Shown here: in pieces, positions 17,941-36,475 of the stretch | Numbering within the stretch: the stretch's first letter is position 1 | Layout: every line of letters starts with the position of its first letter | From: an uncultured virus (IMG/VR IMGVR_UViG_3300043410_001952) | Lineage: Duplodnaviria > Heunggongvirae > Uroviricota > Caudoviricetes | IMG/VR virus record: IMGVR_UViG_3300043410_001952 | Reading direction: 5' to 3' (one strand) | DNA length: 64,000 bases | The notes under the pieces: model-generated | Told to the model about the DNA's origin: nothing | Seen by the model: only the letters and a program-made list of their open reading frames with translations | Databases searched by the model: none | Translations under genes and position numbers: made by a program

Positions 17941-18678
17941 TTATTTTCCTTTATTTATGAATTTTTTATAACCCAAATAAGCTAAAATTACAAATCCTAA
18001 AACTACAATCCCTTTTTGTGGTGTAGTAAAATCAGCTAATAAACCTTTTTTTGGCTCTTCTTTACCTTCGTTTCTTGTACCTTTTACATCAGTAGGCGTT
18101 TCGGCACTTTTAACCTCTTCGGCTTGTTGCGCTTGTGGTTGTTCAAATGGATTTTGTTCCTCATTGTAAACAACCCCACTTCCACCACCTATTCCACCTC
18201 CAGTTGTAGGCGTTGGATTTGTAGCTACTGAAGCTAATGTTTTTACTGATACTTGTGAACCAGTAGATTTATTACCTGCTGCATCTATTGCTACAACTTT
18301 GTACGTGTAGTTAGTTAATGCACTAAGCCCAGAATCGGTAAATGTTGTTGTTGGTGCTAAGACTGATTTAATCAAAGTTCCATTTCTGTACAAATTGTAT
18401 TTAACAACTTTAATGTTATCAGTTGCTACACCCCAACTTAAATTTACTTGAGAACTATTTAAAGCATTTGCATTTATGCTATTTGGTCCTGATGGTGCAA
18501 TTTTATCGGTAGTTGGTGTTACAATATTTCTTACTGGTGTTTGAACAATAGGAACACGTGTTGCAGTAGATGCTGTTGTAGTTGCAGTAACAGTTGGTGT
18601 TACAACAGGTTTTACAGGTGCAGCTACTACTCCAGTAGCATTTGAATAAAGCACCTTGTTATTTCTAATTACTTTCAT
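17941..18678 (-). CDS. fibronectin type III domain protein with C-terminal membrane anchor
   Basis: APSGP...LSWGVATDNIKVVKYNLYRNG...YTYKVVAIDAAGNKS; C-terminal TM + KGK; YSNATG. Confidence 0.85.
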   Translation of the reverse strand: MKVIRNNKVLYSNATGVVAAPVKPVVTPTVTATTTASTATRVPIVQTPVRNIVTPTTDKIAPSGPNSINANALNSSQVNLSWGVATDNIKVVKYNLYRNGTLIKSVLAPTTTFTDSGLSALTNYTYKVVAIDAAGNKSTGSQVSVKTLASVATNPTPTTGGGIGGGSGVVYNEEQNPFEQPQAQQAEEVKSAETPTDVKGTRNEGKEEPKKGLLADFTTPQKGIVVLGFVILAYLGYKKFINKGK

Positions 18679-18681
18679 GAC

Positions 18682-19188
18682 TTATTTTCCTTTTGATTTA
18701 GCACCTCTTGACCTAACTGCAAAAATGATTATCCCAATCAACGCCAAACCACCAATTGCAATTCCAATCATCGCACCAGTAGATAAACCACCTTTTGTAT
18801 CACCACTATCTTGCAAAGCCTTAGCTAATTCAACATCGCTTTGTTTTTCTTGTGATAAACCACGATTAAGCTCTGCTCTTGAATTGATTTCATTGGTTTT
18901 AGCTGCTTTACGAGCCATTCTTGCTTCAATTCTTGCTTTACGTGCATCACTCATGTACGAAAACTCATCTTGTTCAGGGAAAACTTCATTTCTGAAATTA
19001 TCACCTTTACCATCAAATGGGTAAAAATCATCTCCATCACGAAAGTTTTTAACATCAGATGCTCCTGACATTACTTCGTATTTCAAAATACCATTTTTAG
19101 TGGCTGATAAATCCTCAAAAGTACCATCGCTACCTATTGAAGTGCGTGGAACTGCGATTCTTTTCGTTAGTACCTTTACTTGTGCCAT
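18682..19188 (-). CDS. C-terminally anchored membrane protein
   Basis: GLSTGAMIGIAIGG TM + basic tail. Confidence 0.75.
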   Translation of the reverse strand: MAQVKVLTKRIAVPRTSIGSDGTFEDLSATKNGILKYEVMSGASDVKNFRDGDDFYPFDGKGDNFRNEVFPEQDEFSYMSDARKARIEARMARKAAKTNEINSRAELNRGLSQEKQSDVELAKALQDSGDTKGGLSTGAMIGIAIGGLALIGIIIFAVRSRGAKSKGK

Positions 19189-19751
19189 TATTTAAACTTT
19201 TTGTATAAAACATAAGTTGCACCCAATAAAAGTACAACTAAAACTATTGCTTTGTAATCAGTTGGCTTATCAAACAACCTTTTTGGAGGGTGATATGATT
19301 GTGCCTCTTTATCTAAATCTTCCAAATTGTTATCATGTATAACATCTTTGAGAAAATTAGCATATTTATTATCCTCAGCGTAACCTGCTTTGGCAATTGC
19401 ATCTATTTGTTGTTGTGGCGTATTAGCTTCAAAAACACCTGCTCTTTCATACCTATCATTATTCATTAAAAAACTATTATGGTCTTTAATAGAATCGTTT
19501 GCACTTTTGTATTTTCTGAAAGAACTTACTTTACTTGCATCTTTCGATGTTGGCAAAGATACTTTTTCACCTTTCCATGAAGCATCAGCCTTAATACCAA
19601 AATAATTGTTGGCTTTTTTAACTGCTAAGTTTTCACCCCAACCACTTTCAATTATCATTTGAGCCATTTTAACACTTGGAAAAATTTGTGTGTCGTATGT
19701 TTGCTCAATAATTGCTTGTTTGTGCTTCGATATGAAATCTTTTTTATTCAT
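19188..19751 (-). CDS. GH73 (FlgJ-like) glucosaminidase with C-terminal TM
   Basis: AQMIIESGWG, NNYFGIKA, FRKY, GYAED..YA. Confidence 0.9.
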   Translation of the reverse strand: MNKKDFISKHKQAIIEQTYDTQIFPSVKMAQMIIESGWGENLAVKKANNYFGIKADASWKGEKVSLPTSKDASKVSSFRKYKSANDSIKDHNSFLMNNDRYERAGVFEANTPQQQIDAIAKAGYAEDNKYANFLKDVIHDNNLEDLDKEAQSYHPPKRLFDKPTDYKAIVLVVLLLGATYVLYKKFK

Positions 19752-19754
19752 GAC

Positions 19755-20195
19755 TTATACTGCAGCGTTCCACTTCTTTAACGCTTCTAAGTATTGTTTG
19801 CCAAAAATTTTCCATACTTGAGCTGTTGCAGGACCAAAATTACCCAATCCTTTACCTGCTACATTTGGATTACCCTCTTTCAAGAAATGCCATTTACCAT
19901 TTACGTTTATCCAGGGTTTACCTTGAGCATCCATCCAAGTTTGAAAACTTTGTACTTTTTGAGGAGTATCAAGTTCTTTTGGTGCTTTTAACGATGGAGT
20001 ACCACTTGGAGTTGTTTTTGGTTTTGTAACACCTTTAACTGGATTTACGCTTGTCGAATCAATTGCATCTTGCAAGGTGTCATCTAAAACATCCTGCTCA
20101 ACTCCTCTACCCTTTTTAATGATATAATAAGCAACACCTACAATAACAAGAATAGAACCACCAACCAATAACAATTGCTTAGTTTCTTTATTCAT
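19755..20195 (-). CDS. N-anchored protein with peptidoglycan-binding-like domain
   Basis: VQSFQTWM...GNFGPATAQVW resembles the PG_binding_1 GxxGxxT pattern. Confidence 0.5.
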   Translation of the reverse strand: MNKETKQLLLVGGSILVIVGVAYYIIKKGRGVEQDVLDDTLQDAIDSTSVNPVKGVTKPKTTPSGTPSLKAPKELDTPQKVQSFQTWMDAQGKPWINVNGKWHFLKEGNPNVAGKGLGNFGPATAQVWKIFGKQYLEALKKWNAAV

Positions 20196-20201
20196 GTTTT
20201 A

Positions 20202-20414
20202 TTATTTTATAGTGCTTTTGTTTGGAGTGCTTCTTTTCGCTGCAATCATTGCTTGAGCATTTGCCCCAACTACTGCACCTACAAGAGCAATACCTACTTT
20301 TAACCATGTTTTAGAAACATTTGCATATTTCCCTGAAGCCCAATAAAATGCACCTGCACCTACTACTGCTCCAATAACATTACTTTTTACTTTTGCTACT
20401 ACTTTAGTTCCCAT
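20202..20414 (-). CDS. small two-TM membrane protein
   Basis: Gly/Ala-rich hydrophobic helices. Confidence 0.7.
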   Translation of the reverse strand: MGTKVVAKVKSNVIGAVVGAGAFYWASGKYANVSKTWLKVGIALVGAVVGANAQAMIAAKRSTPNKSTIK

Positions 20415-20438
20415 TTTGTGTAATTTTAAATTTGATTT

Positions 20439-20639
20439 TTACTCTTTTATTTTGATGACTTCTTTGTCATTCATTGCATAATTAAAAGCAGCAACACCTA
20501 CAAGGATTGCCACAACTGGCATAATACCTTCTTTAACGTTTTTAACTGCCATTAAACTCATTCCAGCACCAACAACCAATGCAGCTGAACCAGCGATTGT
20601 TGCTATGCGAATTGTTTTTTTAACTGTTGGATTTGCCAT
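20439..20639 (-). CDS. small two-TM membrane protein
   Basis: two hydrophobic helices. Confidence 0.7.
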   Translation of the reverse strand: MANPTVKKTIRIATIAGSAALVVGAGMSLMAVKNVKEGIMPVVAILVGVAAFNYAMNDKEVIKIKE

Positions 20640-20658
20640 TTTATATTTGTTTTGATTA

Positions 20659-21156
20659 TTAAACTCTGTATTTAATACCTTTTGTCTTTAAAATATAATT
20701 CAATTTATTTATTTCAGTATCACTCATCTCGTAACGTAAGAATTGCGAAAGGGTATAATCCAAAGGAACTGCCCAATCGTATGTTTTACGTGTTGGTTTA
20801 CCCCATGCTTGTTGTAATGCCAAATAATCGCTATCATTATTTAATTTTCTAAAAATAGAATAGATAGCTTGTTCATCAGTACCAAGACCGAAACCTGCTA
20901 CTTCAATTTGATTTGCCCAAGATTTGTATTGTGATAAAGGAAAAGATAATGGATGTTTTTTAACTGATTGTTGAATTTCAGTTTCAACATCTTTATTTTC
21001 TTCATTTGCACGTTGTTGCTCTGCACTGAATCTTTTACTTGCTTTATACAAAGTATAACCAACTGCTGCAACTACACCAACTGAAATAAGCCCTTTAGCC
21101 CATGATGGAAGACCAGAAAAACTCTCTTTTAAGAAATTACCTTTTGCCATAAACAA
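20659..21156 (-). CDS. N-anchored protein with annexin-like repeat
   Basis: GLGTDEQAIYSIF matches the annexin GxGTDExxL..I signature. Confidence 0.6.
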   Translation of the reverse strand: MFMAKGNFLKESFSGLPSWAKGLISVGVVAAVGYTLYKASKRFSAEQQRANEENKDVETEIQQSVKKHPLSFPLSQYKSWANQIEVAGFGLGTDEQAIYSIFRKLNNDSDYLALQQAWGKPTRKTYDWAVPLDYTLSQFLRYEMSDTEINKLNYILKTKGIKYRV

Positions 21157-21285
21157 TTATTTCAACACGATGATATTTAAAGTGTTACACTATTTATTTG
21201 TTTGTTTAGGGCTTATAAATAGAGAGTTGTTGTTTGTAAAATTAACAAAAATTATTACAAAGTGTATTTTTTTACATTTTTTTTA

Positions 21286-22863: not shown

Positions 22864-22875
22864 GCTTATTTGTTT

Positions 22876-24231: not shown

Positions 24232-24253
24232 ACTTATTTGTTTTAAAAGAAAA

Positions 24254-24421: not shown

Positions 24422-24458
24422 ACTAATTTATTTTACGTTTAAACAAATTTAATAAAAA

Positions 24459-27362
24459 TTAAGGCACATAAACTGCATCTATTGAATTTGTAGTAGTGTT
24501 ATAATAAAAATAATAGTTTCCACTTACAGCACCAGTTCCAGGATTTATACCTGCTGAAGCATTTATGTAGTCTGTATATTGAGGAATATATTGTTGTGCA
24601 ACGATAAATGAATTTGGTAAGTTATTTGATGCTGGCGTTATTGAATCAAAACCTGCATTTAAACCTATACCCACTACTTGTGTTGCAGAGTTACCATATA
24701 AAGCATTATTACCAAAAGCAACAACATCATTTGCCGAGTTTTGATATGCAGAGCCATGCCCTATACACACTAAATTTTCTGCGATACTATTGTTATATCC
24801 CGACAACTCTCCAATACCTAAAAAAGCTGTTGTTTTATTTAGATATGCAGATTGATACCCAATTGCTAAAACTTGTTCATAAGCATTTTGATAAGCAGCA
24901 CTCTCGCCTATTGCTATTACCGCAGGGTTTTGATTTTGATATGCTGAATTTCTACCTATTGCTATTACATCTCTTGCACCAATATTTTCATACCCAGCGA
25001 ACTCTCCAATAGCTATAAAATGAGAACCTGTATTACTTCTACCTGCATCATAGCCAATACCAATTACATTATCACCTATATTGCCTCTTAATGCCTCAAA
25101 ACCAAAAGCAACAACTTCAGTTCCACTACCAGTAGCAAAAACATCTTTACCAAAAGCAACAATGCTTGGGTCATATTGCCACGTACCCCAATTGTTACCT
25201 GTAAGAACAAAATTTATTGTAGCACCTGATGTAGTACCAAAATAATCTGTTGGCGTAATACCTGCGTTTCCACCTAATAACCAAGCAGTACCTCCACCTC
25301 CACCTCCAGCAGGTCCTTGAATACCTTGAATACCTTGAGATTGGTTAAATCCTCCACCTTGAAGCCCTTGTGTACCCTGACGACCTTGAATACCAATTGT
25401 ACCTTGAATACCTTGATTTGAAATACCTTGCAATCCTTGCGTTCCTTGTCTGCCTTGAATACCTTGTGAGCCAATAGTACCTTGAATACCTTGATTTGAA
25501 ATTCCTTGTGTACCTTGTAAGCCTTGAGTACCAAAACCTCCTTGTACACCTTGTGTTCCCTGAACACCTTGTAATCCTTGTAATCCAATCAAACCCTGTA
25601 CTCCTTGTGTGCCTTGTGCTTGATTAAAACCACCTCCTTGTACACCCTGCGTACCTTGAATACCTTGAATACCTTGAATAGCATACGCCACTTGTGTGGC
25701 AGTAAGTATTACTGATGGTATTCTTGGTGATATTGGTATTGTACCAGCAGGGGTTGTTGTTAACGATAATTGTGTGCTTGAACCTGCAAAAACTAACTCT
25801 ATGTAATCCCCTGCGTTTAATTTTAACACAAAATTAACGGTCATTATGTATGCACCATTTACACCAGAGTGTTTTTTTGGAATAGTAGCTTTACTATCCG
25901 AATCTGGTATATTACCTGTACTTCCACTATCATTTAGTCTTAACCATAGGTTTGCATCTTGCTCATTTGAATTGTCAGAATTCGTTATTTGCACTGAAAA
26001 TGTAATTGAATATACACCTGCATTTGCAAACGTCATTCTTGAACCAGAAACTATTGAAACACCATTTGAATTGGGGTCAGTTGTATTTATGGTTACTATT
26101 TGCTCTGATGTGGTGCTTAACAAAGGTTGAGTTGTTGTATCCCAAAAAGAACCCCAATATCCAACTACACCACCTGCGCCAACAGGTCCAACTAAACCTT
26201 GTAATCCCTGCAAGCCTTGCGTACCTTGAGTACCAAAATTTCCTTGTACACCTTGTGTACCTTGAACACCTTGTATTCCTTGTATTCCTTGCAATCCTTG
26301 CAATCCTTGAACAGAATACGTTACTTGAGAAACACTTGCCCATTTAGAGCCACCATCAGGTCCATTGTAAGGCGAAATTGGTGTTGGAGTAGCATCTATG
26401 ATAGCTGTTATCGCATCTGATGTCCAAAATAATTCAACGTAATTCGTGCCACCTAAAATATCAGCAGATGTTATTGTTACTTCGATTTGCCTTTCAACCA
26501 ATGCTGGGTAAGCATCTAAGGCTTGTGACATCATTGTTCGTGCTATATTTGTACCACCTTTTTTGAAAAAAGTGTAAAAATTTATACCACTACCACCTGC
26601 AGTATCTCTCGCAGTAACATTACAAACTAATAAGTATGTGCCTTCGTATGCAAAAGTTATCTTAGAATTTGAAACAACTGAAACACCATTGCTTATGTAT
26701 GTTAAATCAAACTGAACTGCTTGTGGTGTATTTGCAACCAAAATAGATTGTGTGCCAAATGAGTAAAACGTTCCATAATAACCTATAACACCACCTGCAC
26801 CAACATCTCCTTTTAAACCTTGAAGCCCTTGTAACCCCTGTATTCCTTGAATTCCTTGCCCAGCAAAAGAACCAGGTAATCCCTGTATTCCTTGAATACC
26901 TTGTAATCCCTGAATACCTTGTGAACCAATTAACCCTTGAATACCTTGTGTTCCTTGAATACCTTGTGAACCAATTAACCCTTGAATACCTTGTGTTCCT
27001 TGAATACCTTGTGAACCAATGCCAGATGCTATGTTTAATTGAGCTAAATATTTTGTGTCAGCAACAATTCGAACCAACGCACTACCACCATTTGTATTGA
27101 TAACTACACTTGCACTTCCATTTATTGTATAACCACTTGGAGCATTTATTGTAATATTTTTTGTCGCTGCGTTATTAGAAGCATCAATAACATACAATTT
27201 GTAAATGCTATTCCATGCTCCTGCAGGTATATCAAGTAGGTTAATTGTTACAACATCAATCGAAGTGTCACACAATAAAATCTCATCAGAAGGGCTTACA
27301 ATTGGTGTGCCACTTACTGTCCTTGAAATATTTGAATATTGTTGTGATGGTAATGTACTCAT
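24459..27362 (-). CDS. collagen-like fibre/receptor-binding protein
   Basis: three Gly-X-Gln triplet blocks separated by two related C1q/BclA-like beta domains; C-terminal A[IF]GxxA repeats like trimeric adhesin heads. Confidence 0.85.
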   Translation of the reverse strand: MSTLPSQQYSNISRTVSGTPIVSPSDEILLCDTSIDVVTINLLDIPAGAWNSIYKLYVIDASNNAATKNITINAPSGYTINGSASVVINTNGGSALVRIVADTKYLAQLNIASGIGSQGIQGTQGIQGLIGSQGIQGTQGIQGLIGSQGIQGLQGIQGIQGLPGSFAGQGIQGIQGLQGLQGLKGDVGAGGVIGYYGTFYSFGTQSILVANTPQAVQFDLTYISNGVSVVSNSKITFAYEGTYLLVCNVTARDTAGGSGINFYTFFKKGGTNIARTMMSQALDAYPALVERQIEVTITSADILGGTNYVELFWTSDAITAIIDATPTPISPYNGPDGGSKWASVSQVTYSVQGLQGLQGIQGIQGVQGTQGVQGNFGTQGTQGLQGLQGLVGPVGAGGVVGYWGSFWDTTTQPLLSTTSEQIVTINTTDPNSNGVSIVSGSRMTFANAGVYSITFSVQITNSDNSNEQDANLWLRLNDSGSTGNIPDSDSKATIPKKHSGVNGAYIMTVNFVLKLNAGDYIELVFAGSSTQLSLTTTPAGTIPISPRIPSVILTATQVAYAIQGIQGIQGTQGVQGGGFNQAQGTQGVQGLIGLQGLQGVQGTQGVQGGFGTQGLQGTQGISNQGIQGTIGSQGIQGRQGTQGLQGISNQGIQGTIGIQGRQGTQGLQGGGFNQSQGIQGIQGPAGGGGGGTAWLLGGNAGITPTDYFGTTSGATINFVLTGNNWGTWQYDPSIVAFGKDVFATGSGTEVVAFGFEALRGNIGDNVIGIGYDAGRSNTGSHFIAIGEFAGYENIGARDVIAIGRNSAYQNQNPAVIAIGESAAYQNAYEQVLAIGYQSAYLNKTTAFLGIGELSGYNNSIAENLVCIGHGSAYQNSANDVVAFGNNALYGNSATQVVGIGLNAGFDSITPASNNLPNSFIVAQQYIPQYTDYINASAGINPGTGAVSGNYYFYYNTTTNSIDAVYVP

Positions 27363-28276
27363 AATAATCTTTTAGAATCCCTCGCTTCTTTGTAAAAAAC
27401 TTTTTTCAAACTTATTTGCTCATAAAAGAAACACATTGTAACATTCGTGTTTGCATAAACAGTGTAGTTCATAACATCCATTCCATCAGGGAAGTATGGT
27501 CTTCCAATACTATCCTTAAAATTGAACGCAATTATGTTTCCTTGTGACTGCATCGTATCAATTGTCAAAGATAAGTTTAGTGGGTCAACCAATACGTGTC
27601 CTTGAATGTTTTTATTTTGAAATTGAATTGGTGCAGTAATTTGTCGTGCTATTGCATTTTTTGACCCATCAACAGTGCAATAAGCATTATGTATCATTAT
27701 TGGATTTGCCAACATATTGAATAAAACATCACTATATTGTATCAATCCTCCTTGAACTGTTATTCTATTGTTTAAGTTTTGAGATGTTGAAAATAAATAA
27801 TTCAAAGGCATAGAGGGGTCAAACAAAGAAACAGTGAAATCAACTTCTGAATCGTTTGCAATGTTTATTACCAACTCCTTTAGCTTTTTACCATCTGTGT
27901 AACCAATTTGTCTACGTGCTTCGTTTTTTCTTGTTTGATTAAGAATGAATTTCGAAACATTTTGAACGATAACTGGTGTATCACGTGGCACAACAACTCT
28001 TGATGATTTATTTTGCCCAAATGGGGCGCATGATTGTGCGGTTACATTGTTTGGGGATAATCTTTTATTATTGTCAATGGTTCTATTTACCTTGCGAAAT
28101 ATCTTTTTGAAATCATCACTACCTCCATCAATGCTACTAAAATCCAAATTGTTTACAGCATCATCAAAGTAGTTAAACTCTTCGTTTGGTGTATAGATAG
28201 AATTACCTCTGCCACGCAAAAAGTTGTTTAGACGAGCATCTAAACCAGAATAATCTTCGGCATCCCATAATTCCAT
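27359..28276 (-). CDS. capsid-protein paralog (minor/vertex candidate)
   Basis: C-terminal half aligns with 35702..36475: LF, QGG..Y, PLNL, Q.Q.NI, DG, TVYANT. Confidence 0.6.
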   Translation of the reverse strand: MELWDAEDYSGLDARLNNFLRGRGNSIYTPNEEFNYFDDAVNNLDFSSIDGGSDDFKKIFRKVNRTIDNNKRLSPNNVTAQSCAPFGQNKSSRVVVPRDTPVIVQNVSKFILNQTRKNEARRQIGYTDGKKLKELVINIANDSEVDFTVSLFDPSMPLNYLFSTSQNLNNRITVQGGLIQYSDVLFNMLANPIMIHNAYCTVDGSKNAIARQITAPIQFQNKNIQGHVLVDPLNLSLTIDTMQSQGNIIAFNFKDSIGRPYFPDGMDVMNYTVYANTNVTMCFFYEQISLKKVFYKEARDSKRLL

Positions 28277-28278
28277 TT

Positions 28279-29064
28279 TTAGTTCTTTTTAGCGAACTCT
28301 TGATTTTCAAAGCGTTGAATGTAATCCATTATTTTACGCATCCTTTCAATGTTACCCTTTGTTTGGGCTTTCAAGAATACATTTGCAAACACACAAATTG
28401 CATCTACTTTAGAAAATCCAAGTCCTAAGTAAATATACAAAGCATTTATGTCAGCACCAACCTCATTTTCAATTTCTAACCCAATTTTAGGATTTTTGTA
28501 TTTATGAGAATACTCATGCAAAAGAATTATCAAACGCATTGGAATTGTGTAAGCATTGAATTTCGTTTTTGCTACTTCTATTCTCCCTGATTGATGTCCA
28601 ATACGAGCAGGGGTGTTCATAATCGCACCCTTTTCATCTCTTATCGCATCAAAGTAAACAATCTTAAATTGGTCGTCTTTTGATTTGAAAAGTTTTCCAG
28701 TTTGTGATGCACCAACAAAACCTGCTACTTGACAAAATGGCACAGCAAGATTTAAAAATCCTCTTGTTTGTGCATCAAGCCAAATATTGTAGTCAACAAG
28801 TGCTGATTCATTTAATTCAACTTTAAAGTCTTTGTCAGTTGGCGATATGCTATTCAAAACACCAACAAAAAGCGTTTTAGGTGACACAGGGAAAGGAAAA
28901 TAAATAGTACGTGAACCATTTACAACAATCTCTCTATCACCATACTTAGAATTAGTTTTTTGAAACTCTTCAGCCCAAACACGAAACTTCTTTTCACCAC
29001 TACAAGTGATTGTAATGTTAAGTTGAAACTTGTTGTTATTTGAATCGTATTGTTGTGAAAACAT
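28279..29064 (-). CDS. zincin-like metallopeptidase (candidate maturation protease)
   Basis: ILLHEYSH followed by NEVGAD. Confidence 0.6.
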   Translation of the reverse strand: MFSQQYDSNNNKFQLNITITCSGEKKFRVWAEEFQKTNSKYGDREIVVNGSRTIYFPFPVSPKTLFVGVLNSISPTDKDFKVELNESALVDYNIWLDAQTRGFLNLAVPFCQVAGFVGASQTGKLFKSKDDQFKIVYFDAIRDEKGAIMNTPARIGHQSGRIEVAKTKFNAYTIPMRLIILLHEYSHKYKNPKIGLEIENEVGADINALYIYLGLGFSKVDAICVFANVFLKAQTKGNIERMRKIMDYIQRFENQEFAKKN

Positions 29065-29576
29065 TATGCAGTTTGAGTTTTATTGCCTCTTGTTAATACA
29101 AGTGCTAATATACCAATAATTGCAACACCACCTACAATATACCATACAGTATTGTCTTTTTCTGCTGGTGGAGGGGGCGTATTATCAACAGTTCCTCCAG
29201 TTTGACCGCCAGTTATTTTTTGTTGCAAATAAGCCAATGTTTGTTGCAAAGCAAATTGTCCTGCTGGGCTATTTTTAAATTTCTTCCAAGTTTTAGAAGT
29301 GTTATCCCAAAACTTACCATCTTTTTTTGCAGCATCAAGTTGCATTTGTACAGTTGGAGCAGTTCCTTTTTCTTTAGCTTGTTTTTCTAAAAAATCAAAA
29401 TATGTCGTTTGTGTTGATGAAGACGTTGGTTTTTCAGTAGTGCTATAAGTAACACTATCTTGTGGTTTTATACCACCAACTTCTTGACCTTGAGGCGAAA
29501 CAACATCCCCTACTGCATTTGAATAAATTGATTCTTTAGGGTTAACTAAAATTGGATATTTTGTAATTACGTTCAT
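29064..29576 (-). CDS. C-terminally anchored membrane protein
   Basis: MNVIT start, YSNAVG, PPPP linker, TM. Confidence 0.75.
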   Translation of the reverse strand: MNVITKYPILVNPKESIYSNAVGDVVSPQGQEVGGIKPQDSVTYSTTEKPTSSSTQTTYFDFLEKQAKEKGTAPTVQMQLDAAKKDGKFWDNTSKTWKKFKNSPAGQFALQQTLAYLQQKITGGQTGGTVDNTPPPPAEKDNTVWYIVGGVAIIGILALVLTRGNKTQTA

Positions 29577-29582
29577 ATCGTT

Positions 29583-30098
29583 TTATATTAAATCTTCTTG
29601 ATTAACTATTTTTACTTTTGGCTTTCCATTACTTGTACGATAAACGATGTAAGCACCTAATAAAGCACCTGCAATAGCACCATACAATTTGTATTTTTTA
29701 TCTGGCTCACCAATTAAGCCTTGTTTTTCTGCTACGTAAACACCTACTGCGCCAAGAATAGCACCAATAACCATTGCATCAGCGTAACGCACCTTTGGGT
29801 TTGTTGGTAATGACACTTTCTTTGTTTTAGGCACTCCATCAAAAGACGATGTTTTAGTTGGCATTGTGCCACCAACTGCCTTCGTTGTAAGTTCACGAAC
29901 AACATCAAGTGGAACGATACATCCCTCACCTACCAAAATGAAAGCAGGTTTATTATTTGCGTGTTTTAACTCACCACGAATAATATCACCCTTTCTAAAG
30001 CGTTTTGCTTTTACCTCTTGTGGTTTATGTGGAATACCCGTTACTTGAACGTAAGGAGCATTAAAATCATGCGTTATGATATAACTCTTTTGTGCCAT
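29583..30098 (-). CDS. membrane protein, two C-terminal TMs
   Basis: GAxxGA helices; SSFDG. Confidence 0.75.
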   Translation of the reverse strand: MAQKSYIITHDFNAPYVQVTGIPHKPQEVKAKRFRKGDIIRGELKHANNKPAFILVGEGCIVPLDVVRELTTKAVGGTMPTKTSSFDGVPKTKKVSLPTNPKVRYADAMVIGAILGAVGVYVAEKQGLIGEPDKKYKLYGAIAGALLGAYIVYRTSNGKPKVKIVNQEDLI

Positions 30099-30104
30099 TT
30101 TTTT

Positions 30105-30617
30105 TTATTTTTTAAACGTATTGTATGTGTTGTAAGCGTTTAATACCCCAAAGGTAATAATTGCTATGTCTAATCCTTTTGTTTTACCCCAACTTGTTTT
30201 TGCAATGTAAGCAAATGAAGCCCAACTTGCGATTAACAAAAATGTTTGCTCGTTATTCTTTTTGGTTAATTCTGTTTTAGTTGAAAATTTTGTAATATCT
30301 GCCATTTTTGTAGGCAATAATTTCTCAGAAACAACTACCGAATCTAAAGGAAAGCTACCCCAATCAATAGTTTCACCTTTCTCGTTAAACAATTGACCTT
30401 CTTTATTTGCTCCCAAGCTGTATTTTTTATCAACTATTTTAATAGTTGATGTAGCAGGGTAAACTACTTTTTTGTTGTTTTTACCTACAAAAGTCAATTC
30501 ATTGTTTGGAGTAACGATAAGCGTTGAAGGAACACGAAAGTTATTGAACGTAGAAGATATTGGTAAGCCACTTGTGCTTCCATCTGCATTACTTATATCA
30601 ATTCTTTCTTGTGCCAT
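30105..30617 (-). CDS. membrane protein
   Basis: ISNADG near N-terminus; C-terminal hydrophobic helices. Confidence 0.7.
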   Translation of the reverse strand: MAQERIDISNADGSTSGLPISSTFNNFRVPSTLIVTPNNELTFVGKNNKKVVYPATSTIKIVDKKYSLGANKEGQLFNEKGETIDWGSFPLDSVVVSEKLLPTKMADITKFSTKTELTKKNNEQTFLLIASWASFAYIAKTSWGKTKGLDIAIITFGVLNAYNTYNTFKK

Positions 30618-30704
30618 TTTAATTCAATTTTGCGCTTTTATTACTCTTTGACTTTTTGTATTGGTTGTAAACGTAAATGCCTATGCCAAGAATAGCCAAC
30701 GTTC

Positions 30705-31115
30705 CTAATAGCTTTTTCCTTTACCTTTTTTCATTACATTGTAACCAACAACCAAAGCAACAAAAATAATGCTTCCTATAATAATGTTTTTCTTGGTAAA
30801 CATTTGTGCAAATTTTCCTTTTCCACTACCATTTGTATCATCTTCGATATTTTCATCTGTTACATTACCACTTGTATCAGGAATTGGCTTAGTTTCTGGC
30901 TTTGGCTTTACATCTTCAACCTTAGTCATAATATCACCCAAAGACTTCATAGGCACATAGAACTTTCGCGTTACTACACCCAATTGATTAAATGTAAATA
31001 CTTCTACATTTTCCCAATCTTTTTTCCATCTACCAACTTTAATATCACCTTTTTTAGCAACATCCTTGTAATCTTTCAAGAATTTAAACTTGGCTTTTTT
31101 ATATTCCTCTGCCAT
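30705..31115 (-). CDS. C-anchored membrane protein, paralog of 31326..31748
   Basis: FLKD...AKKGD...W..DW...N.LGV...KF..PM shared; start MAEEY at 31115. Confidence 0.75.
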   Translation of the reverse strand: MAEEYKKAKFKFLKDYKDVAKKGDIKVGRWKKDWENVEVFTFNQLGVVTRKFYVPMKSLGDIMTKVEDVKPKPETKPIPDTSGNVTDENIEDDTNGSGKGKFAQMFTKKNIIIGSIIFVALVVGYNVMKKGKGKSY

Positions 31116-31119
31116 AACT

Positions 31120-31323
31120 TTATAATTTACCTTTTTTGATGTACTTTTTGTACACGAAATAACCAATTGCTAAAACTGCCACTCCAAGTACAACATTTTT
31201 AGTTGTCAATAGTTTTTTAGGTTCTTCCTTAATTGGTGGTTTGCTTTCAACTGGCTTACCTTTAGTCGTTGGTGTTTTTGTAGCATCAGGTTTTTTAGTA
31301 ACTGCTTTTGATGTTGTTGCCAT
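31120..31323 (-). CDS. small C-anchored membrane protein
   Basis: P/K/T-rich, LTTKNVV TM, KKGK. Confidence 0.7.
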   Translation of the reverse strand: MATTSKAVTKKPDATKTPTTKGKPVESKPPIKEEPKKLLTTKNVVLGVAVLAIGYFVYKKYIKKGKL

Positions 31324-31325
31324 AA

Positions 31326-31748
31326 CTATTTACCTTTTTTAGTTGCCATTTTAAAACCAACAAATAACACAACCAATGCACCAACACCAATTAAAATGTT
31401 TTTTGTAGTGAATATTGATTTCTTTTCCTCTACCACAGGAGGTGTAGTAAGTGCTGTTTCAGTTGGTTTAGTTTCAGGTGCTTTTTCACCTTTATCTATA
31501 GGTTTATGTGGCAACTCTTTTATTATTGGCTTTGGAGTTGCTACATTGTCAACTTTTTTCATTGTTTTGTCAATCTCTGTCATTGGAATCCAAAACTTAT
31601 CATCAATAACACCAAGAGAATTTACATGACGAAACTCAATATCTTTCCAATCATCAGCCCAATAACCAAATTTTTTATCACCTTTTTTAGCTTTATTGCT
31701 CCAATCTTTTAAGAACAAAAACGTTCCACTTTTATTTGCTGCTCCCAT
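31326..31748 (-). CDS. C-anchored membrane protein
   Basis: FTTKNILIGV TM, KKGK. Confidence 0.75.
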   Translation of the reverse strand: MGAANKSGTFLFLKDWSNKAKKGDKKFGYWADDWKDIEFRHVNSLGVIDDKFWIPMTEIDKTMKKVDNVATPKPIIKELPHKPIDKGEKAPETKPTETALTTPPVVEEKKSIFTTKNILIGVGALVVLFVGFKMATKKGK

Positions 31749-31753
31749 TTCTA

Positions 31754-32167
31754 CTATTTTTTACCTTTTTTAACGTATTTTTTATACCCATAATAAGCTA
31801 CTGCCAATACTATAACACCAATTAAAATGTTTTTTGTAGTAAACAATCCACTTTGCGTTTGAGATGTTGTTGTACCACTTGTTGTTGTGCTATTTTCTTT
31901 TGTTTTTACTGGAGTTGTTGTATTATTAGATGTTTCTAAAGGTTTAAATAATCTATTATTCCCTTTGTCTTCACGACCACCAAATCCAATTTTTAAAAGA
32001 CCATTTGTTCCACTTACAACTAAAAGGTTTGGTGGCTCACTTGATTTATTACGTTCAACAGTTCCTTCAACAATATCACCAGCTTTATATGAAAATGTTC
32101 TTATTCCTACTACTCCACCTACGGTTACTGTTTTCGAAAATGGTTTAAGAAAAATATATTTTGCCAT
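31754..32167 (-). CDS. C-anchored membrane protein
   Basis: FTTKNILIGV TM, KKGKK. Confidence 0.75.
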   Translation of the reverse strand: MAKYIFLKPFSKTVTVGGVVGIRTFSYKAGDIVEGTVERNKSSEPPNLLVVSGTNGLLKIGFGGREDKGNNRLFKPLETSNNTTTPVKTKENSTTTSGTTTSQTQSGLFTTKNILIGVIVLAVAYYGYKKYVKKGKK

Positions 32168-32172
32168 AACAC

Positions 32173-32700
32173 TTATTTTTTACCACTTTTCATTACTAAA
32201 AATATCACCAATCCTACAACTGCTAATCCTCCTACTGCAATTCCAATTTTAACACCAAGTTTCATTGGTTCTTTTACAGGTGGTTTATTTTCATCAGTTG
32301 TGTATGTTGGCGCACCCGTTGGAGTTAAATCTGCACTTGAAGCACATTTGTTCCATGCCTCGATTGCTTTTTTTCCAACTTTAGGCTTTTTACCACACTT
32401 TTGTTCAACATCAGTATATGTACGTTGTCTTCCTATCAATGCTGTACCAAGTTGAGTAAAAATATCTGTACCTGCACTTAACAAATCAGCATTGATACCA
32501 CTTTTACCTCGACCAGTAGTTTGTGCTGATTCACCAGATTGTGTTGGTGTTGATTCTATTGGTTTTGGTTTTCTTGGTGTTAAAGTACCTACTGTATCAC
32601 CATCTCCATTTGAATAACTATCTTGACAACCACAAGCATTTGATGTAGATTGATTCAAGTGTTGAACTATAACTGGATTATTTGGGCTAATTATTTTCAT
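32173..32700 (-). CDS. C-anchored membrane protein
   Basis: SNACG, YSNGDG; KIGIAVGGL TM. Confidence 0.75.
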   Translation of the reverse strand: MKIISPNNPVIVQHLNQSTSNACGCQDSYSNGDGDTVGTLTPRKPKPIESTPTQSGESAQTTGRGKSGINADLLSAGTDIFTQLGTALIGRQRTYTDVEQKCGKKPKVGKKAIEAWNKCASSADLTPTGAPTYTTDENKPPVKEPMKLGVKIGIAVGGLAVVGLVIFLVMKSGKK

Positions 32701-32704
32701 ATTG

Positions 32705-33061
32705 TTACTTTTTTCTTGTTGCTAAAAAGATAACCAAGCCAACAACAACTAAACCTCCAACTGCTAAACCAATTTTAGCATTTTTTGACATACCTTGTTG
32801 AGTTTGTTGAGTTTGTTGAGTATCTGCGCCAGTAACTTCAGCCCCTTTAATTGGTGCTTTAGTATCAGGCGATTTACCACCAGTTGTTTCTTCTTGTTTA
32901 GAAAAACCAACATCAGAACCACTTTTTTTTCCTTTGCGTTCTCCTAATTTATAAACACCATATCCTGCTGCACCAATAGGAGAAGCAAACAACAATGATT
33001 TCCACCATTTCTTTTTGCCACTTGCATTGGAGTAAATATCTCCTTGAGTAATTACGTTCAT
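32705..33061 (-). CDS. C-anchored membrane protein
   Basis: MNVIT, YSNASG; KIGLAVGGL TM. Confidence 0.75.
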   Translation of the reverse strand: MNVITQGDIYSNASGKKKWWKSLLFASPIGAAGYGVYKLGERKGKKSGSDVGFSKQEETTGGKSPDTKAPIKGAEVTGADTQQTQQTQQGMSKNAKIGLAVGGLVVVGLVIFLATRKK

Positions 33062-33062
33062 T

Positions 33063-33731
33063 TTACTTTCCTTTATTTCGTTTCATTGCTACAATAGCAA
33101 CTATAATTCCTATTACTAATACACCACTAATTGCTATAATAGCAGTGGTTTTTCCTTTACCTGCTTGTTCGGCTTTTGATTTTTTGTAGTCTAAAGCACT
33201 TTGAAATAAAGCAGATTTAGCAGCGTTTTGTTGAGCAGCTAACTTTTGACCTGCTGTTTTCTGTTCTTGTTTTCCTTTAACAATTGTATTTGTTAAATCT
33301 ATTCCTTTTCCACCTGCTTCAAACATTTTTCCAGCTGCTTCTGCTATTGCACTAACTGGGTCTATGGCATTCGAATAACTTTCTGCACTAAAGCAACTTT
33401 TTAAAACACCATAAACATTGCGAACATTTGTATCAGAAATCTCTTGAGTTCCATCTGCACCAACAATTTTATTTTTTTGTTGTGTTAATAAAGCACTACC
33501 AATAGCTAATTTCTTGTTTGTAGGTAAGTTATCTGCATACTTGTTAATCAAATCTATGTCACTATCGCTTATATTAGCTTGAACGCCTGATTCATTCAAT
33601 AAATTGACAAAATCACGCTTTTCATCAACCAACGTTTTGCCAAGTTCTTGCATAACTCTATCACCAGCCTCAATAATTTGATTTTGTTGAATCAACTCAT
33701 TAAATTCGCTATTGAAATCATCTAAAGTCAT
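33063..33731 (-). CDS. C-anchored membrane protein
   Basis: GADG, YSNAID; TM + KRNKGK. Confidence 0.75.
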   Translation of the reverse strand: MTLDDFNSEFNELIQQNQIIEAGDRVMQELGKTLVDEKRDFVNLLNESGVQANISDSDIDLINKYADNLPTNKKLAIGSALLTQQKNKIVGADGTQEISDTNVRNVYGVLKSCFSAESYSNAIDPVSAIAEAAGKMFEAGGKGIDLTNTIVKGKQEQKTAGQKLAAQQNAAKSALFQSALDYKKSKAEQAGKGKTTAIIAISGVLVIGIIVAIVAMKRNKGK

Positions 33732-33734
33732 ATC

Positions 33735-33842
33735 TTAATGTTTAAAATGTTTAAACTTAATTACAAATAAAGTAGCATAAGCAAGAGCCACAGCACCGTA
33801 AGCAACAAGTAACAATTTATCTTCTGTACTAATATTTTTCAT
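33735..33842 (-). CDS. 35-aa membrane peptide (not in ORF track)
   Basis: MKNISTEDKLLLVAYGAVALAYATLFVIKFKHFKH fills the gap exactly. Confidence 0.6.
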   Translation of the reverse strand: MKNISTEDKLLLVAYGAVALAYATLFVIKFKHFKH

Positions 33843-33843
33843 A

Positions 33844-34668
33844 TTACAATCCTTTTAAAAGCCCATATTTTTTGATAGCCCAAATAGCACCTACTGCCAC
33901 TATGCCACCAACAAGGAAACTACCCCAATTTATGTTTAAAGTAGTTTTACCATCTGCATTCACGAAGAACTCTCTTACAGGAGGCGCATCGAAATCATTC
34001 ACATTGTCTAAGCCATTCAATCCAGTCATATTTGAGTTTCTTTCCTCAGCAGGAATCATAATTTTTCCTTCGCTAAACTTTGGCTCTAAATCCTTTGAAA
34101 CTGGGATAACTCCTTGTTGTGAGTTTTGAGTACTTTTTCTGTTTTTTGCGTTGTGTAATGCTTTTTCAACCTCAATCTTTCTACACTTGCATTGCATTTG
34201 CATATCATCAAAATTCGCATAGTTTTCACCTACACAATTTGAATAATTATCCAAAGCATCTTGAAGCTCACGCATACGTTTCTTACGTTCAATGATAATG
34301 ATTGAAATATTTTGCTTACCATTGGTATTAGCCCTTTCTCTTGTCAATTTATCAATGAACATTTTGTTCCAAATAACTTTGTTGGCTATATCTTGAACTT
34401 GTGGGTTAATAACTACTTCAAGTGGTTGAACGTCTGTGTATCTATCTTCTGCGCCTGGTAATGTACTATCCATAGCATCAAAAGAAGAACCATCACTCAT
34501 TTCACTTGTAGACATAGGAACTTCATGGTGTTTCTTATGGTGACGTTTTGCACGACATTTTTTGCAATTGCAATTTTCATCACAACCAGAAGCATTTTTG
34601 TACAAATCATCAAAAAACAATGTTGATTCGTTATTATTATCAAGTGTAACTATTCTTGCGTTTCCCAT
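33844..34668 (-). CDS. C-anchored membrane protein with Cys clusters
   Basis: YKNASG, YSNCVG, SNMTG, VNADG; C-terminal TM. Confidence 0.75.
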   Translation of the reverse strand: MGNARIVTLDNNNESTLFFDDLYKNASGCDENCNCKKCRAKRHHKKHHEVPMSTSEMSDGSSFDAMDSTLPGAEDRYTDVQPLEVVINPQVQDIANKVIWNKMFIDKLTRERANTNGKQNISIIIIERKKRMRELQDALDNYSNCVGENYANFDDMQMQCKCRKIEVEKALHNAKNRKSTQNSQQGVIPVSKDLEPKFSEGKIMIPAEERNSNMTGLNGLDNVNDFDAPPVREFFVNADGKTTLNINWGSFLVGGIVAVGAIWAIKKYGLLKGL

Positions 34669-34676
34669 CGTGAAAA

Positions 34677-35147
34677 TTATTTACTTGTTTTAACCGTAAT
34701 TGCTCTTCGTCTATCAACGATATAACCAGAAGCATAGCCTATGATTGCACCAATAGCACTTGCATAAATTGCTTTACGATTGTCCATTTTTTTAGACTTT
34801 GCATAAGCATATCCTAAAACTCCCCCTGCAACGATTCCAATCATCTTCACTTTTGAAAATGTTTCAGCAGGTATTAAATTAACTGTTGTTGGTGTTCTAC
34901 TTTCATCTGCACCAAGCATTACTTCTGTTGCCATAATTGGTTCTACTTTGTTTAAGTATAAAATTTTATCATCATTTGTCACGAATAAGCGATACGTAAA
35001 TGGCTCACCTCTTCGTAATCCTTCAATCATTTTTTGTTCACCTTCAATTGTTGTATCCATTGGAATAACAACATCTGTTTCGGTAAAATTTTTGTGTTCT
35101 TTGTTAGGTAATAAAACCTTTGCATTTTCCAACACTTTTGCTTTCAT
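34677..35147 (-). CDS. membrane protein, two C-terminal TMs
   Basis: LGADE; GA-rich helices. Confidence 0.75.
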   Translation of the reverse strand: MKAKVLENAKVLLPNKEHKNFTETDVVIPMDTTIEGEQKMIEGLRRGEPFTYRLFVTNDDKILYLNKVEPIMATEVMLGADESRTPTTVNLIPAETFSKVKMIGIVAGGVLGYAYAKSKKMDNRKAIYASAIGAIIGYASGYIVDRRRAITVKTSK

Positions 35148-35159
35148 ACTTATTTATTT

Positions 35160-35615
35160 TTAATGTTTACTTGCCATTTTAACAGCAAAACCTAATGTAA
35201 GCCCTACCAATGCTATCAACATTGCAGGACCTATAAACGCTTCGATTGGTGCATATTTTTTTACTTGTGTATCACCTTCTAAGTTACTTCTTTGCTCATA
35301 ACTTGGTGTTTGTGTTGTAGGGCAGTCGTCATCTACCATGTTTGATGTTTTTTCCCCATTAACACCATCAACAACTTTTGGCGCAACATACTTCATCAAG
35401 AATTTCTTGTGTGGGTGTATATCAGCCAATTTCTTTTCAAGTTCAATCTTATCTGGAGTTTTAACGTATAACTCTGACAATTTGACTTCCAAATCAGTAT
35501 GGTTTTTTGCATCAGGCACACCATACGATTTCAATAATTTTCGGGCATCACTTGTGGCTTCATGTGCTAACAAAGTCATGATTGTAATATCTGCCTTATC
35601 TGATTTCCTTTTCAT
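35160..35615 (-). CDS. C-anchored membrane protein
   Basis: IHPHK; SNMVD, SNLEG; C-terminal TM. Confidence 0.75.
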   Translation of the reverse strand: MKRKSDKADITIMTLLAHEATSDARKLLKSYGVPDAKNHTDLEVKLSELYVKTPDKIELEKKLADIHPHKKFLMKYVAPKVVDGVNGEKTSNMVDDDCPTTQTPSYEQRSNLEGDTQVKKYAPIEAFIGPAMLIALVGLTLGFAVKMASKH

Positions 35616-35638
35616 TCTCTTTCAAAAGATTGATAAAT

Positions 35639-35678
35639 AAAAAAAAGGGGAGGACATCAATGTAGCCCTGCCCCTTTC
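35639..35678 (-). terminator. intrinsic terminator after the major capsid candidate
   Basis: minus strand AAAGGGGCAGGGC-loop-GTCCTCCCCTTTTTTTT. Confidence 0.8.
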
Positions 35679-35701
35679 TTATTTTGTCGTAACAAAAATT
35701 A

Positions 35702-36475
35702 CTATCCTGTAATTCCTTTTACTGCTTGTGCAGTTTGGATGATTACTGGCGCAACATTTTTAGCACTCAAACGAGGTGCTTGAGCCATGTTCAATGTTTT
35801 ACCACCATTCAATACAGCTTTAGTAGAGAACACTTCAACTGGGAACATTGCGATAGTCAACACTGTGTTAGCGTAAACTGTGAATGTTAAGTAAGTGTTT
35901 CCGTCCACTGTGATTGGCTTAGTAACATCCAAAATGTTATTTTGTTGCTGATAAGCATCACGTGCGATAGCCAAGTTCAACGGAGTTGAATATTGTTTAC
36001 CATTACCATCAACGTGGTTAATAGTGATTGTAATTGCTAATTGAGATGATGTATTATCAGTTCCAGAAGTATAGGTAGCCGCTTGGAAACGGAATTTACC
36101 AATTTTGAATGGTTTGTTGTTTGACTGTGTCAATAAACGACCATAAGTACCACCTTGTAAGTTGGCTACTTGGATTCCAGGCCATGCTGGTTGTCCTTGC
36201 GTGTAACCAGTAGAGTAATCATTATATCCAAACAATACAGCAGTATTATTAGTACCAGTTGTAGTGTTAGTAAATGATAAAACGTAAGGGTCTGACACCA
36301 TAGAAGATGCGCCAGGACCTGATGCGTAAGACATATCGTCATTATCGAAGTAGCTCATAGAGTCACCATCGAAATAACTCATATCTCCCTCATCGTAGCT
36401 ATCAAAACCAGACATTCTTTCTGTTCCGTTGATATAGCCATGAAGTTCTTTTTCAATAGAGTTCATCTTTTTCAA
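35702..36475 (-). CDS. candidate major capsid protein (jelly-roll-like, all-beta)
   Basis: ~160-aa beta-rich core with two paralogs; followed by a strong terminator; near ATPase; acidic N-terminal MSYFD repeats. Confidence 0.6.
   Translation of the reverse strand: MKKMNSIEKELHGYINGTERMSGFDSYDEGDMSYFDGDSMSYFDNDDMSYASGPGASSMVSDPYVLSFTNTTTGTNNTAVLFGYNDYSTGYTQGQPAWPGIQVANLQGGTYGRLLTQSNNKPFKIGKFRFQAATYTSGTDNTSSQLAITITINHVDGNGKQYSTPLNLAIARDAYQQQNNILDVTKPITVDGNTYLTFTVYANTVLTIAMFPVEVFSTKAVLNGGKTLNMAQAPRLSAKNVAPVIIQTAQAVKGITG

Follow-up and report, generated by a model that had tools for sequence, protein, structure and literature searches.

A short peptide motif recurring in the structural-block proteins of an uncultured phage: a possible signal for virion targeting and processing

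Introduction

Why should a dozen or so proteins encoded together in one viral genome carry the same short peptide? This question is raised by a stretch of 64,000 nucleotides from an uncultured virus (IMG/VR record IMGVR_UViG_3300043410_001952), which was analysed at its full length and is called the window below. An initial annotation had pointed out a YSNAxG-like motif in about 12 membrane and capsid proteins encoded at 17.9-36.5 kb, and had suggested that it is either a maturation cleavage site or a docking signal that marks proteins for the virion. We report that the motif is confined to this late structural block and occurs there well above chance. The block also encodes a predicted zinc metallopeptidase, open reading frame (ORF) 28279, which may cut the motif as part of a virion targeting and processing system.

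Consensus processing and targeting signals are a hallmark of complex virions, such as those of T4, φKZ, adenovirus, and the poxviruses. For bacterial phages with a jelly-roll coat or a membrane we know of no such signal, and none is described in the accessible portions of the literature searched; the current view is that these phages assemble without a maturation protease. The window represents most of the genome of an uncultured low-GC phage that looks tailless and probably contains a membrane.

Occurrence of the motif in the window

In its core form the motif reads aromatic-Ser-Asn-Ala-x-Gly, and the wider set of copies follows Φ-S-[N/G/S/Y]-[A/F/M]-x-G, where Φ is an aromatic or hydrophobic residue. 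The hydrophobic fourth residue and the final Gly are its constant features. When translations and coordinates were checked, every peptide named in the initial annotation was found in a minus-strand ORF at its reported place, and further sites came to light in ORF 27359 (FSSIDG) and ORF 18682 (MSGASD and FSYMSD). The number of copies was compared with that in 2000 within-protein shuffles, separately for the 27 ORFs of the block at 17.9-36.5 kb and the 87 other ORFs. YSNAxG occurs three times in the block (0.00 expected) and never elsewhere (0.01 expected), and SNAxG five times against 0.18 expected (elsewhere, 1 against 0.28). The looser pattern Φ-S-[NSYG]-[AFMLIC]-x-G is found 8 times in the block, where 0.89 are expected, and in none of the 87 ORFs outside it, where shuffling predicts 1.24. 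The enrichment of structural over other genes, which had been proposed as a check, therefore exceeds the shuffled background, and the early and replication genes indeed lack the motif. In a blind count of 161,715 gapped patterns that fix four of six letters, SNA.G ranked first, Y.NA.G third, and YSN..G sixth; the best raw p value was 3.6e-7, or ~0.06 after Bonferroni correction.

The codons of the motif vary from copy to copy (TAT/TAC for the first residue; TCA/AGT/TCC/TCG for Ser; GCT/GCA/GCC for Ala; GGA/GGG/GGT/GGC for Gly). Because they differ, an origin from DNA repeats is ruled out, and selection acts on the peptide and not on the DNA.

A profile was derived independently of the window by an expectation-maximization (EM) motif search with 60 random seeds, the top five of which were inspected, on the N-terminal extensions of 104 coat-family proteins from other genomes. 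The runs with the best scores settled on the consensus [DE]-x-[FYM]-S-[GYSN]-[AF]-D-G, with ~164 sites in the 104 extensions. Applied to the window without its coat protein, this profile matched 14 sites in the block, where 4.7 are expected (0 of 300 shuffles reached 14), and 14 sites outside the block, where 11.7 are expected (reached by 88 of 300 shuffles). Within the coat family, 51 strict motifs lie in 5,578 residues of extension, for which shuffles give a mean of 2.2 and a maximum of 7, whereas the cores contain 5 in 23,991 residues, so that the extensions are ~40-fold denser. At least one strict copy is present in 43 of the 104 extensions, and the first copy starts at median residue 19, straight after a conserved N-terminal helix. 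A compositional artefact is thus ruled out by within-protein shuffles at three levels: the window ORFs, the profile scan, and the coat family.

Conservation in related viruses

The role of the motif as a mark of structural-block proteins is borne out by two related full contigs as well as by the window. On a related 71-kb contig, [FYM]S[NGSY][AFMV]xG occurs 13 times against 0.66 expected, and all 13 copies fall in a stretch that runs from the coat gene (38.2 kb) past the protease gene (46 kb) as far as 52.5 kb, ~6 kb beyond the latter. On a distant 97-kb contig with a coat identity of ~30%, the strict pattern is found 5 times against 0.69 expected, and 4 of the 5 copies lie between the coat and protease genes. 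The distant relatives of ~100 kb were recovered with a 10-sequence coat sub-alignment, and the distant protein P0167 used alone as a query retrieved nothing. In this clade, again at ~30% coat identity, the coat protein has FSNAIG, and the N-termini of tail-anchored proteins carry LLNADG, LMGFDG, YFNFDG, FSNATG, FSNASG, and LFGFDG.

Orthologues that are 50-70% identical have the motif at the same linker positions. The sites persist while their flanks, and even the lengths of the proteins, vary. By comparison with the ±15 residues on either side, orthologue alignments show higher conservation of the motif columns at 11 of 17 sites, equal conservation at one, and lower conservation at five.

Proteins carrying the motif

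The motif appears in three settings: at the extreme N-terminus behind M-x-[VI]-[IV]-[TSE], in tandem in the acidic extensions of coat proteins, and in linkers that join a soluble domain to a membrane anchor. Its carriers are the jelly-roll coat candidate, a coat-like vertex candidate, and some ten small tail-anchored membrane proteins. All carrier genes lie on the minus strand. Membrane anchors were called from a Kyte-Doolittle hydropathy scan. By this measure 17 of the 27 block ORFs have a hydrophobic segment, which in 14 of the 17 ends ≤15 residues from the C-terminus, compared with 13 of the 87 ORFs outside the block.

The N-terminal setting is clearest in four tail-anchored proteins, whose starts of the form M[NK][VI]I[TRS] had been noticed before and were found as described. 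ORF 32705 (32705-33061; 118 residues) starts MNVIT and has the N-terminal module MNVITQGDIYSNASG with YSNASG at 33017-33034. ORF 32173 (32173-32700; 175 residues) starts MKIIS, and its module leads to TSNACG (32629-32646), followed by YSNGDG (32599-32616). In ORF 29064 (29064-29576; 170 residues), which starts MNVIT, the module reads MNVITKYPILVNPKESIYSNAVG and includes YSNAVG (29508-29525). ORF 17941 (17941-18678; 245 residues with an FN3-like domain) starts MKVIR, has the module MKVIRNNKVLYSNATG, and carries YSNATG (18631-18648). The starts MNIITDKPVIFSNAEG, MISVETSNPVFSNVTG, and MKVITNREIEYSNACG in relatives resemble the window module, the first of them belonging to the orthologue of ORF 32173 in relative L003. 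A further protein of 170 residues, ORF 30105 (30105-30617), has ISNADG at residues 8-13 (30579-30596); no orthologue of it was found among the related loci examined.

Linker sites are found in several other proteins of the block. ORF 33844 (33844-34668; 274 residues), which includes a stretch of charged low-complexity sequence and is hydrophobic at its C-terminus, has four to five sites, namely YKNASG (34585-34602), YSNCVG (34228-34245), YANFDD, NSNMTG (34021-34038), and FVNADG (33949-33966), and five sites are kept in its orthologues of 415-459 residues. The tail-anchored ORF 33063 (33063-33731; 222 residues) has IVGADG (33450-33467) and YSNAID (33360-33377). In ORF 34677 (34677-35147; 156 residues), the N-terminal domain and a glycine-zipper C-terminal part are joined by a linker that holds MLGADE (34902-34919), for which orthologues have TLGADS, TLGADG, YSNADA, NLNANG, or FSKAEG instead. 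ORF 29583 (29583-30098; 171 residues) has TSSFDG (29835-29852) between its N-terminal domain and its hydrophobic part; among 14 orthologues this site varies to VSNATG, MSAFNG, TSNANG, TSKFSG, ISNAEG, and others. The tail-anchored ORF 35160 (35160-35615; 151 residues) carries RSNLEG (35274-35291) ~15 residues ahead of the anchor, and a second peptide, TSNMVD (35331-35348), that is unsupported by conservation. The sites of ORF 18682 (18682-19188; tail-anchored, 168 residues), MSGASD (19054-19071) and FSYMSD (18946-18963), were picked up by the profile scan only.

These carriers had been described as otherwise unrelated, which is overstated, because several proteins with the N-terminal module are paralogous in their C-terminal anchors: ORFs 32173, 32705, 29064, and 18682 are similar there (BLAST E 1e-5 to 7e-7). 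The description stands for the coat protein and ORFs 27359, 33844, 33063, 34677, 35160, and 29583, among which BLAST detected no mutual similarity.

Coat proteins

The tandem setting is that of ORF 35702 (35702-36466, minus strand), the candidate for the major coat protein. Its true start is likely the ATG at 36466 within the ORF 35702-36475, as orthologues begin MNS(I/V)EKE. The predicted protein has a disordered acidic N-terminal extension, an N-terminal helix, and a jelly-roll core at residues ~58-230. Within the first 50 residues, four copies follow each other: MSGFDS (36398-36415), MSYFDG (36365-36382), MSYFDN (36341-36358), and MSYASG (36317-36334). In an AlphaFold2 (AF2) model, the helix spans residues 5-18 and the β-rich core begins at residue 58, with core blocks at predicted local distance difference test (pLDDT) values of 92-97; residues 24-52, which hold the motifs, have pLDDT <50 and are thus disordered in the model. 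Foldseek gave 8 matches to this model at E ≤ 0.001, exclusively coats of como- or picornaviruses, the best being that of cowpea mosaic virus (E 2.3e-4). In VIA the best match was chain O of PR772 (Z 6.2, root-mean-square deviation (rmsd) 3.2, 99 residues aligned), followed by the jelly-rolls of FLiP, PBCV-1, and STIV (Z 5.2-5.6), all of these Z values being middling. A PDB sequence-profile search with the coat alignment gave no match at E 10. The modelled fold of ORF 35702 is a jelly-roll, an eight-stranded β-sandwich like those of known capsid proteins, and the protein is a candidate for the major shell component.

The block's coat candidate has a small paralogue of 160 residues, ORF 40769 (40769-41251, minus strand; BLAST E 5e-12), which has neither the motif nor the N-terminal extension. 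The latter point had been made before and agrees with a BLAST alignment that starts at residue 15 of the paralogue and residue 58 of ORF 35702. Short N-termini of this kind also occur in 21 of 125 coat-family representatives, so that a pair of small and large coat proteins may be common. The closest relative (L002) has no gene at the position of 40769, between the gene for a 400-residue protein and the ATPase gene.

A third coat-like protein, ORF 27359 (27359-28276, minus strand; 305 residues), resembles the coat candidate in its C-terminal part (BLAST E 2e-6) and is a candidate vertex or penton protein. Its acidic N-terminal extension contains FSSIDG (28124-28141) and also FNYFDD, and all 10 orthologues retain DFS-x-[ILF]-x-G. 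The next gene, 24459-27362 (minus strand), encodes a fibre-like protein of 967 residues that Pfam identifies by its collagen repeats. Relatives match it over the first ~108 residues only (44-56% identity), and the remainder is swapped, with lengths of 354-768 residues in the relatives examined. Because the fibre gene follows the coat-like gene and only the N-terminus of the fibre is conserved, a vertex or spike complex with an exchangeable receptor-binding part is suggested.

A candidate maturation protease

The sole peptidase-like gene in the block is ORF 28279 (28279-29064, minus strand), which lies amid the carrier genes and overlaps the start and stop codons of its neighbours. All 5 related records that were searched, distant ones among them, also encode it. 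The predicted protein consists of a β-sandwich (residues 1-89) and an M48-like zincin domain (residues 115-253), modelled by AF2 with a mean pLDDT of 92.3. Its predicted catalytic residues are HEYSH at 182-186 and E200-x-x-A203-D204, the latter marking what we take to be the third zinc ligand. H182, E183, H186, E200, A203, and D204 are invariant in 17 sequences of the family, and HExxH…ExxAD is found in 15 of 15 locus homologues, including those of the distant clade. In VIA, residues 115-253 matched BepA/YfgC of E. coli, a member of M48 (Z 8.0, rmsd 4.6, 118 residues aligned), and the putative zinc peptidase 3c37 (Z 6.4), a Z of 7-8 being stated to be a common level. Foldseek gave weak matches to a Bacillus anthracis protein of unknown function and then to M60 and M48-like peptidases (E 1.9e-3 to 3e-2), and Atlas provided leads only (DUF4344, 0.88; M48, 0.80).

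By fold and motif, ORF 28279 is thus M48-like and a predicted zinc metallopeptidase; it is not called a member of M48, because it has no Pfam or PDB sequence match. The earlier proposal of this protein as the protease agrees with the modelled zincin fold and the invariant HExxH…ExxAD residues, its activity being a prediction. The peptide EVGAD in ORF 28279 was considered as a substrate site and dropped: it is invariant and lies 14 residues past HExxH, for which reason it is read as part of the helix with the catalytic Glu. The protein shares HExxH and a downstream Glu in an E-x-x-A-D-like helix with M48 peptidases and minigluzincins (BepA, HtpX, Ste24), and its modelled catalytic domain may be similar to theirs in fold, but it differs from M48 in being soluble, fused to an N-terminal β-sandwich, encoded by a virus, and located in a structural operon.

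Function of the motif

The motif sits in disordered linkers, recurs in many unrelated particle proteins, occurs in tandem copies in the coat protein, and ends a short conserved N-terminal peptide. Because this pattern matches those of the capsid targeting sequence (CTS) of T4, the sites of prohead proteases, and the N-terminal peptides of adenovirus precursors, we favour a reading that combines address and cut: by analogy with the T4 CTS or the adenovirus precursors, the motif would be a virion targeting and processing signal that ORF 28279 cuts. Our confidence in it falls a little short of even. In this model, the metalloprotease would recognise and cut the motif, and the hydrophobic fourth residue would fill its S1' pocket; zincins usually take a hydrophobic residue in this pocket (read P1'). 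The N-terminal versions would be short propeptides that direct proteins to the particle during its assembly and are subsequently cut off, and the tandem copies would let the coat extension be chopped into small pieces.

Several points weigh against this reading. The structural matches of the candidate protease are middling (Z 8.0), and Foldseek gave none at E ≤ 0.001; no Pfam family, Peptidase_M48 included, was matched even at E 10, nor was there any PDB sequence-profile match at E 10. Some membrane proteins of the block do not have the motif, namely four paralogues at 30705-32167 as well as ORFs 20202 and 20439. The sites that are less conserved than their flanks are TSNMVD, MSYFDN (the third coat copy), YANFDD, NSNMTG, and FNYFDD. 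Taken alone, the window is borderline at four letters because of the Bonferroni-corrected p value given above. Moreover, cleavage itself is a deduction, and the P1' assignment is drawn from general zincin behaviour. Finally, the conserved residues upstream of the N-terminal copies (M-x-V-I-T…P-V), which a bare cleavage site would not need, point to a binding role, possibly as the only role.

The motif might accordingly act in docking without cleavage, binding a common hub such as the underside of the coat, a vertex protein, or an assembly factor, and staying intact as a tether. The upstream residues, M-x-[VI]-[IV]-[TSE]…P-[VI], are β-strand-like and conserved both among paralogues and between genomes; the tandem arrangement in a disordered acidic arm hints at multivalent binding; and the linker sites adjoin membrane anchors, where a tether would sit. 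There is also a precedent in the adenovirus peptides of pVI and pVII, which occupy a common hexon site (PMC8011978). However, in the T4 and adenovirus precedents the docking peptides are cut as well, the hub would be hypothetical, and the coat protein itself bears the motif. A conserved peptidase with intact catalytic residues among the carriers also argues for more than docking. We regard docking alone as the main rival, though less probable than the combined reading.

An absence of any common function appears improbable. The N-terminal copies would then have been left behind when genes for tail-anchored proteins duplicated, and the internal ones would reflect a turn that low-complexity linkers favour. 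The similar anchors of ORFs 32173, 32705, 29064, and 18682, the Gly/Asp/Ser-rich composition of many carriers, and the 5 of 17 sites that are not better conserved than their flanks are consistent with this idea. Yet shuffles that keep composition yield 0.9 copies against the 8 observed, and the motif occurs in mutually dissimilar proteins (the coat protein and ORFs 27359, 33844, 33063, 34677, 35160, and 29583). Its persistence at ~30% coat identity, its ~40-fold higher density in coat extensions than in cores, and its replication in other genomes also speak against chance descent and turn preference.

Least probable is a modification site, with Ser or Asn glycosylated or otherwise modified by virus transferases (22876, 37088, 38710): glycosyltransferase-like genes do lie in or beside the block and some copies read N-A-T or N-A-S, but the reading fits poorly, because Ser is not universal (L, V, or K in ORFs 34677, 33063, and 33844), Asn is often G, S, or Y, and just 4 of the 23 motif instances with coordinates fit N-x-S/T, which also rules out an N-glycosylation sequon. 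A Ca2+ loop like that of EF-hands, judged by eye, was dropped as well, the fourth residue being hydrophobic where a ligand is needed.

Comparison with other viral maturation systems

The favoured targeting and processing reading has its closest parallels in T4, φKZ, and SPN3US, in which N-terminal propeptides of 10-20 residues target proteins to the prohead and are then cut, and in which extra sites in long propeptides are thought to give small, easily cleared fragments (PMC3012670, PMC5694885). Like the T4 CTS, the window has a short N-terminal peptide common to diverse particle proteins, M-[NK]-[VI]-I-[TRS]…[YT]SNAxG in four ORFs. With all three phages it shares a single consensus in the major capsid and many minor proteins, multi-site propeptides, and a protease encoded in the structural module. 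T4-type phages, however, are tailed, have a capsid of the HK97 fold, and use a serine protease that cuts after Glu (L/I-x-E, A/S-x-E). The window has a jelly-roll coat candidate, mostly tail-anchored carriers, the motif Φ-S-N-A-x-G, and an HExxH metalloprotease candidate, and here it is we who infer the cleavage. A serine protease of the T4 gp21/herpesvirus assemblin type together with an HK97-fold capsid was thus not found in the window, in which the candidate enzyme ORF 28279 is an HExxH zincin and the coat candidate a jelly-roll.

The protease of adenovirus (AVP) is a cysteine protease that cuts sites of the (M/I/L)XGX-G type. Poxviruses and asfarviruses, which have eukaryotic hosts, also use cysteine proteases, for core-protein processing at AG-X and GG-X, respectively. 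Adenovirus belongs to a jelly-roll lineage, as the coat candidate seems to, and several of its precursors (pIIIa, pVI, pVII, and pVIII) share one consensus (PMC8011978, PMC4246237). The hexon has a common site to which pVI and pVII bind through their N-terminal peptides, and these peptides are cut by AVP (PMC8011978). Adenovirus differs in being a eukaryotic virus without an internal membrane, and no relation of AVP to ORF 28279 in sequence or fold was found. Poxviruses and asfarviruses, large DNA viruses with membranes, resemble the window in that a short consensus with Gly recurs in many of their structural proteins. The comparison with the poxvirus AG-X site, drawn in the initial annotation, holds only as an analogy: the window has another motif, and its candidate protease is of the HExxH metalloprotease type and not a cysteine protease. 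An adenain/Ulp1-type cysteine protease with (M/I/L)XGX-G, AG-X, or GG-X sites was not found in the block by Pfam or by motif consensus.

In general design, the group of the window comes closest to the vertical single jelly-roll viruses (Sphaerolipoviridae, Simuloviridae, P23-77) and the PRD1-type membrane phages. Like these, it seems to have tailless icosahedral particles with a membrane, and it encodes small and large paralogues of the jelly-roll coat candidate, numerous small membrane proteins, and a P-loop ATPase close to the coat genes. The genomes of the vertical single jelly-roll and PRD1-type viruses measure 16-30 kb, and we know of no maturation protease reported for them. The group of the window differs from both in its contigs of 64-100 kb and in having no sequence match in the phage collection.

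Genome context and virus group

The G+C content of the window is 30%. Up to ~10.4 kb the plus strand carries small genes, and from there to the window end the genes form a single long minus-strand array. The GC skew changes sign near 10.4 kb, and the strand-switch region contains a homing-endonuclease-like gene with GIY-YIG and NUMOD3 domains (10750-11427, minus strand). Pfam matches include the peptidoglycan enzymes glucosaminidase (ORF 19188, with a C-terminal anchor), VanY/M15 (ORF 12762), and SLT (ORF 53323), as well as glycosyltransferases, LPD1/LPD11 polyvalent proteins, RusA, DnaB_C, a DnaA_C-type helix-turn-helix, and DUF4494. Based on this gene content in Pfam and PHROGs, the window is read as a bacterial virus. 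None of the 83 minus-strand ORFs searched with Pfam, or of the 47 searched with PHROGs, matched a portal, terminase, HK97 capsid, or tail-tube family. The P-loop ATPase (39898-40749) has only weak matches to TrwB/AAA_10.

Just upstream of the ATPase gene, 41258-42460 (minus strand) encodes a conserved protein of 400 residues with an acidic low-complexity middle, whose C-terminal half is 29-63% identical in relatives. It is possibly a scaffold or assembly factor, and hence a candidate hub for a docking motif. The four motif-less paralogues of the block (30705, 31120, 31326, and 31754, minus strand) are tail-anchored with a common C-terminal anchor, …TTKN[IV]…YKKY.KKGK. They have no orthologue in any related locus examined and look like a recent local expansion. 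A second common N-terminus, M-x-E-[FC]-G-F-Q-[SG]-G-G-G-G…, heads various Gly-rich proteins of 123 to 1099 residues encoded downstream of the membrane-protein block, both in the window (17289-17660 and 14837-15208, minus strand) and in relatives (L003, 16425-19724 and 19737-20789; L006, 18698-20077), and may be another attachment module. Three proteins of 700-796 residues with LPD1/LPD11 domains are encoded at 46068-52974 (minus strand). Isolated matches of the EM profile outside the block, a strong one to FDYSGFDDKG in ORF 48181 (14.9 bits) and one to DSYFDGG in the SLT transglycosylase (53323-54036, plus strand; 11.6 bits), could be due to chance or hint at packaging.

Relatives of this virus are abundant in metagenomes, which contain 679 homologues of ORF 28279 and 305 coat-family representatives (E ≤ 0.001); those in IMG/VR lie on contigs of 20-146 kb. 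A tblastn search with the coat candidate and the ATPase gave zero matches among 50,697 phage records, and the accessible portions of the literature searched (on tailless and membrane phages, maturation proteases, and jelly-roll phages) describe neither the virus group nor the motif. The protease gene also lies on five contigs of metagenome-assembled genomes (MAGs), of which three were assigned to Bacteroidota bins (two of them to Saprospiraceae/Saprospira) and two to 'archaeon' bins, the latter probably through binning noise. One IMG/VR relative has a giant-virus MAG label. The window thus belongs to an undescribed and common group of viruses with genomes of 64-100 kb, a jelly-roll coat family, a P-loop ATPase, and many tail-anchored proteins.

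Implications

In its broadest form, the proposal is that widespread 64-100 kb Bacteroidota phages with a jelly-roll coat and a membrane mature by means of an M48-like protease that reads Φ-S-N-A-x-G at ~25 sites in at least 13 proteins, the same signal doubling as an address label for tail-anchored proteins and coat subunits. We put this forward tentatively, and with more doubt than assurance. If true, prokaryotic jelly-roll viruses would gain their first maturation-protease system, and capsid lineages as a whole their first that relies on a metalloprotease. For a virus group that is uncultured but common, the motif allows particle proteins to be listed from sequence alone. If its role is confirmed, the N-terminal tag could also serve to pack foreign proteins into these particles, in the way the CTS of T4 is used.

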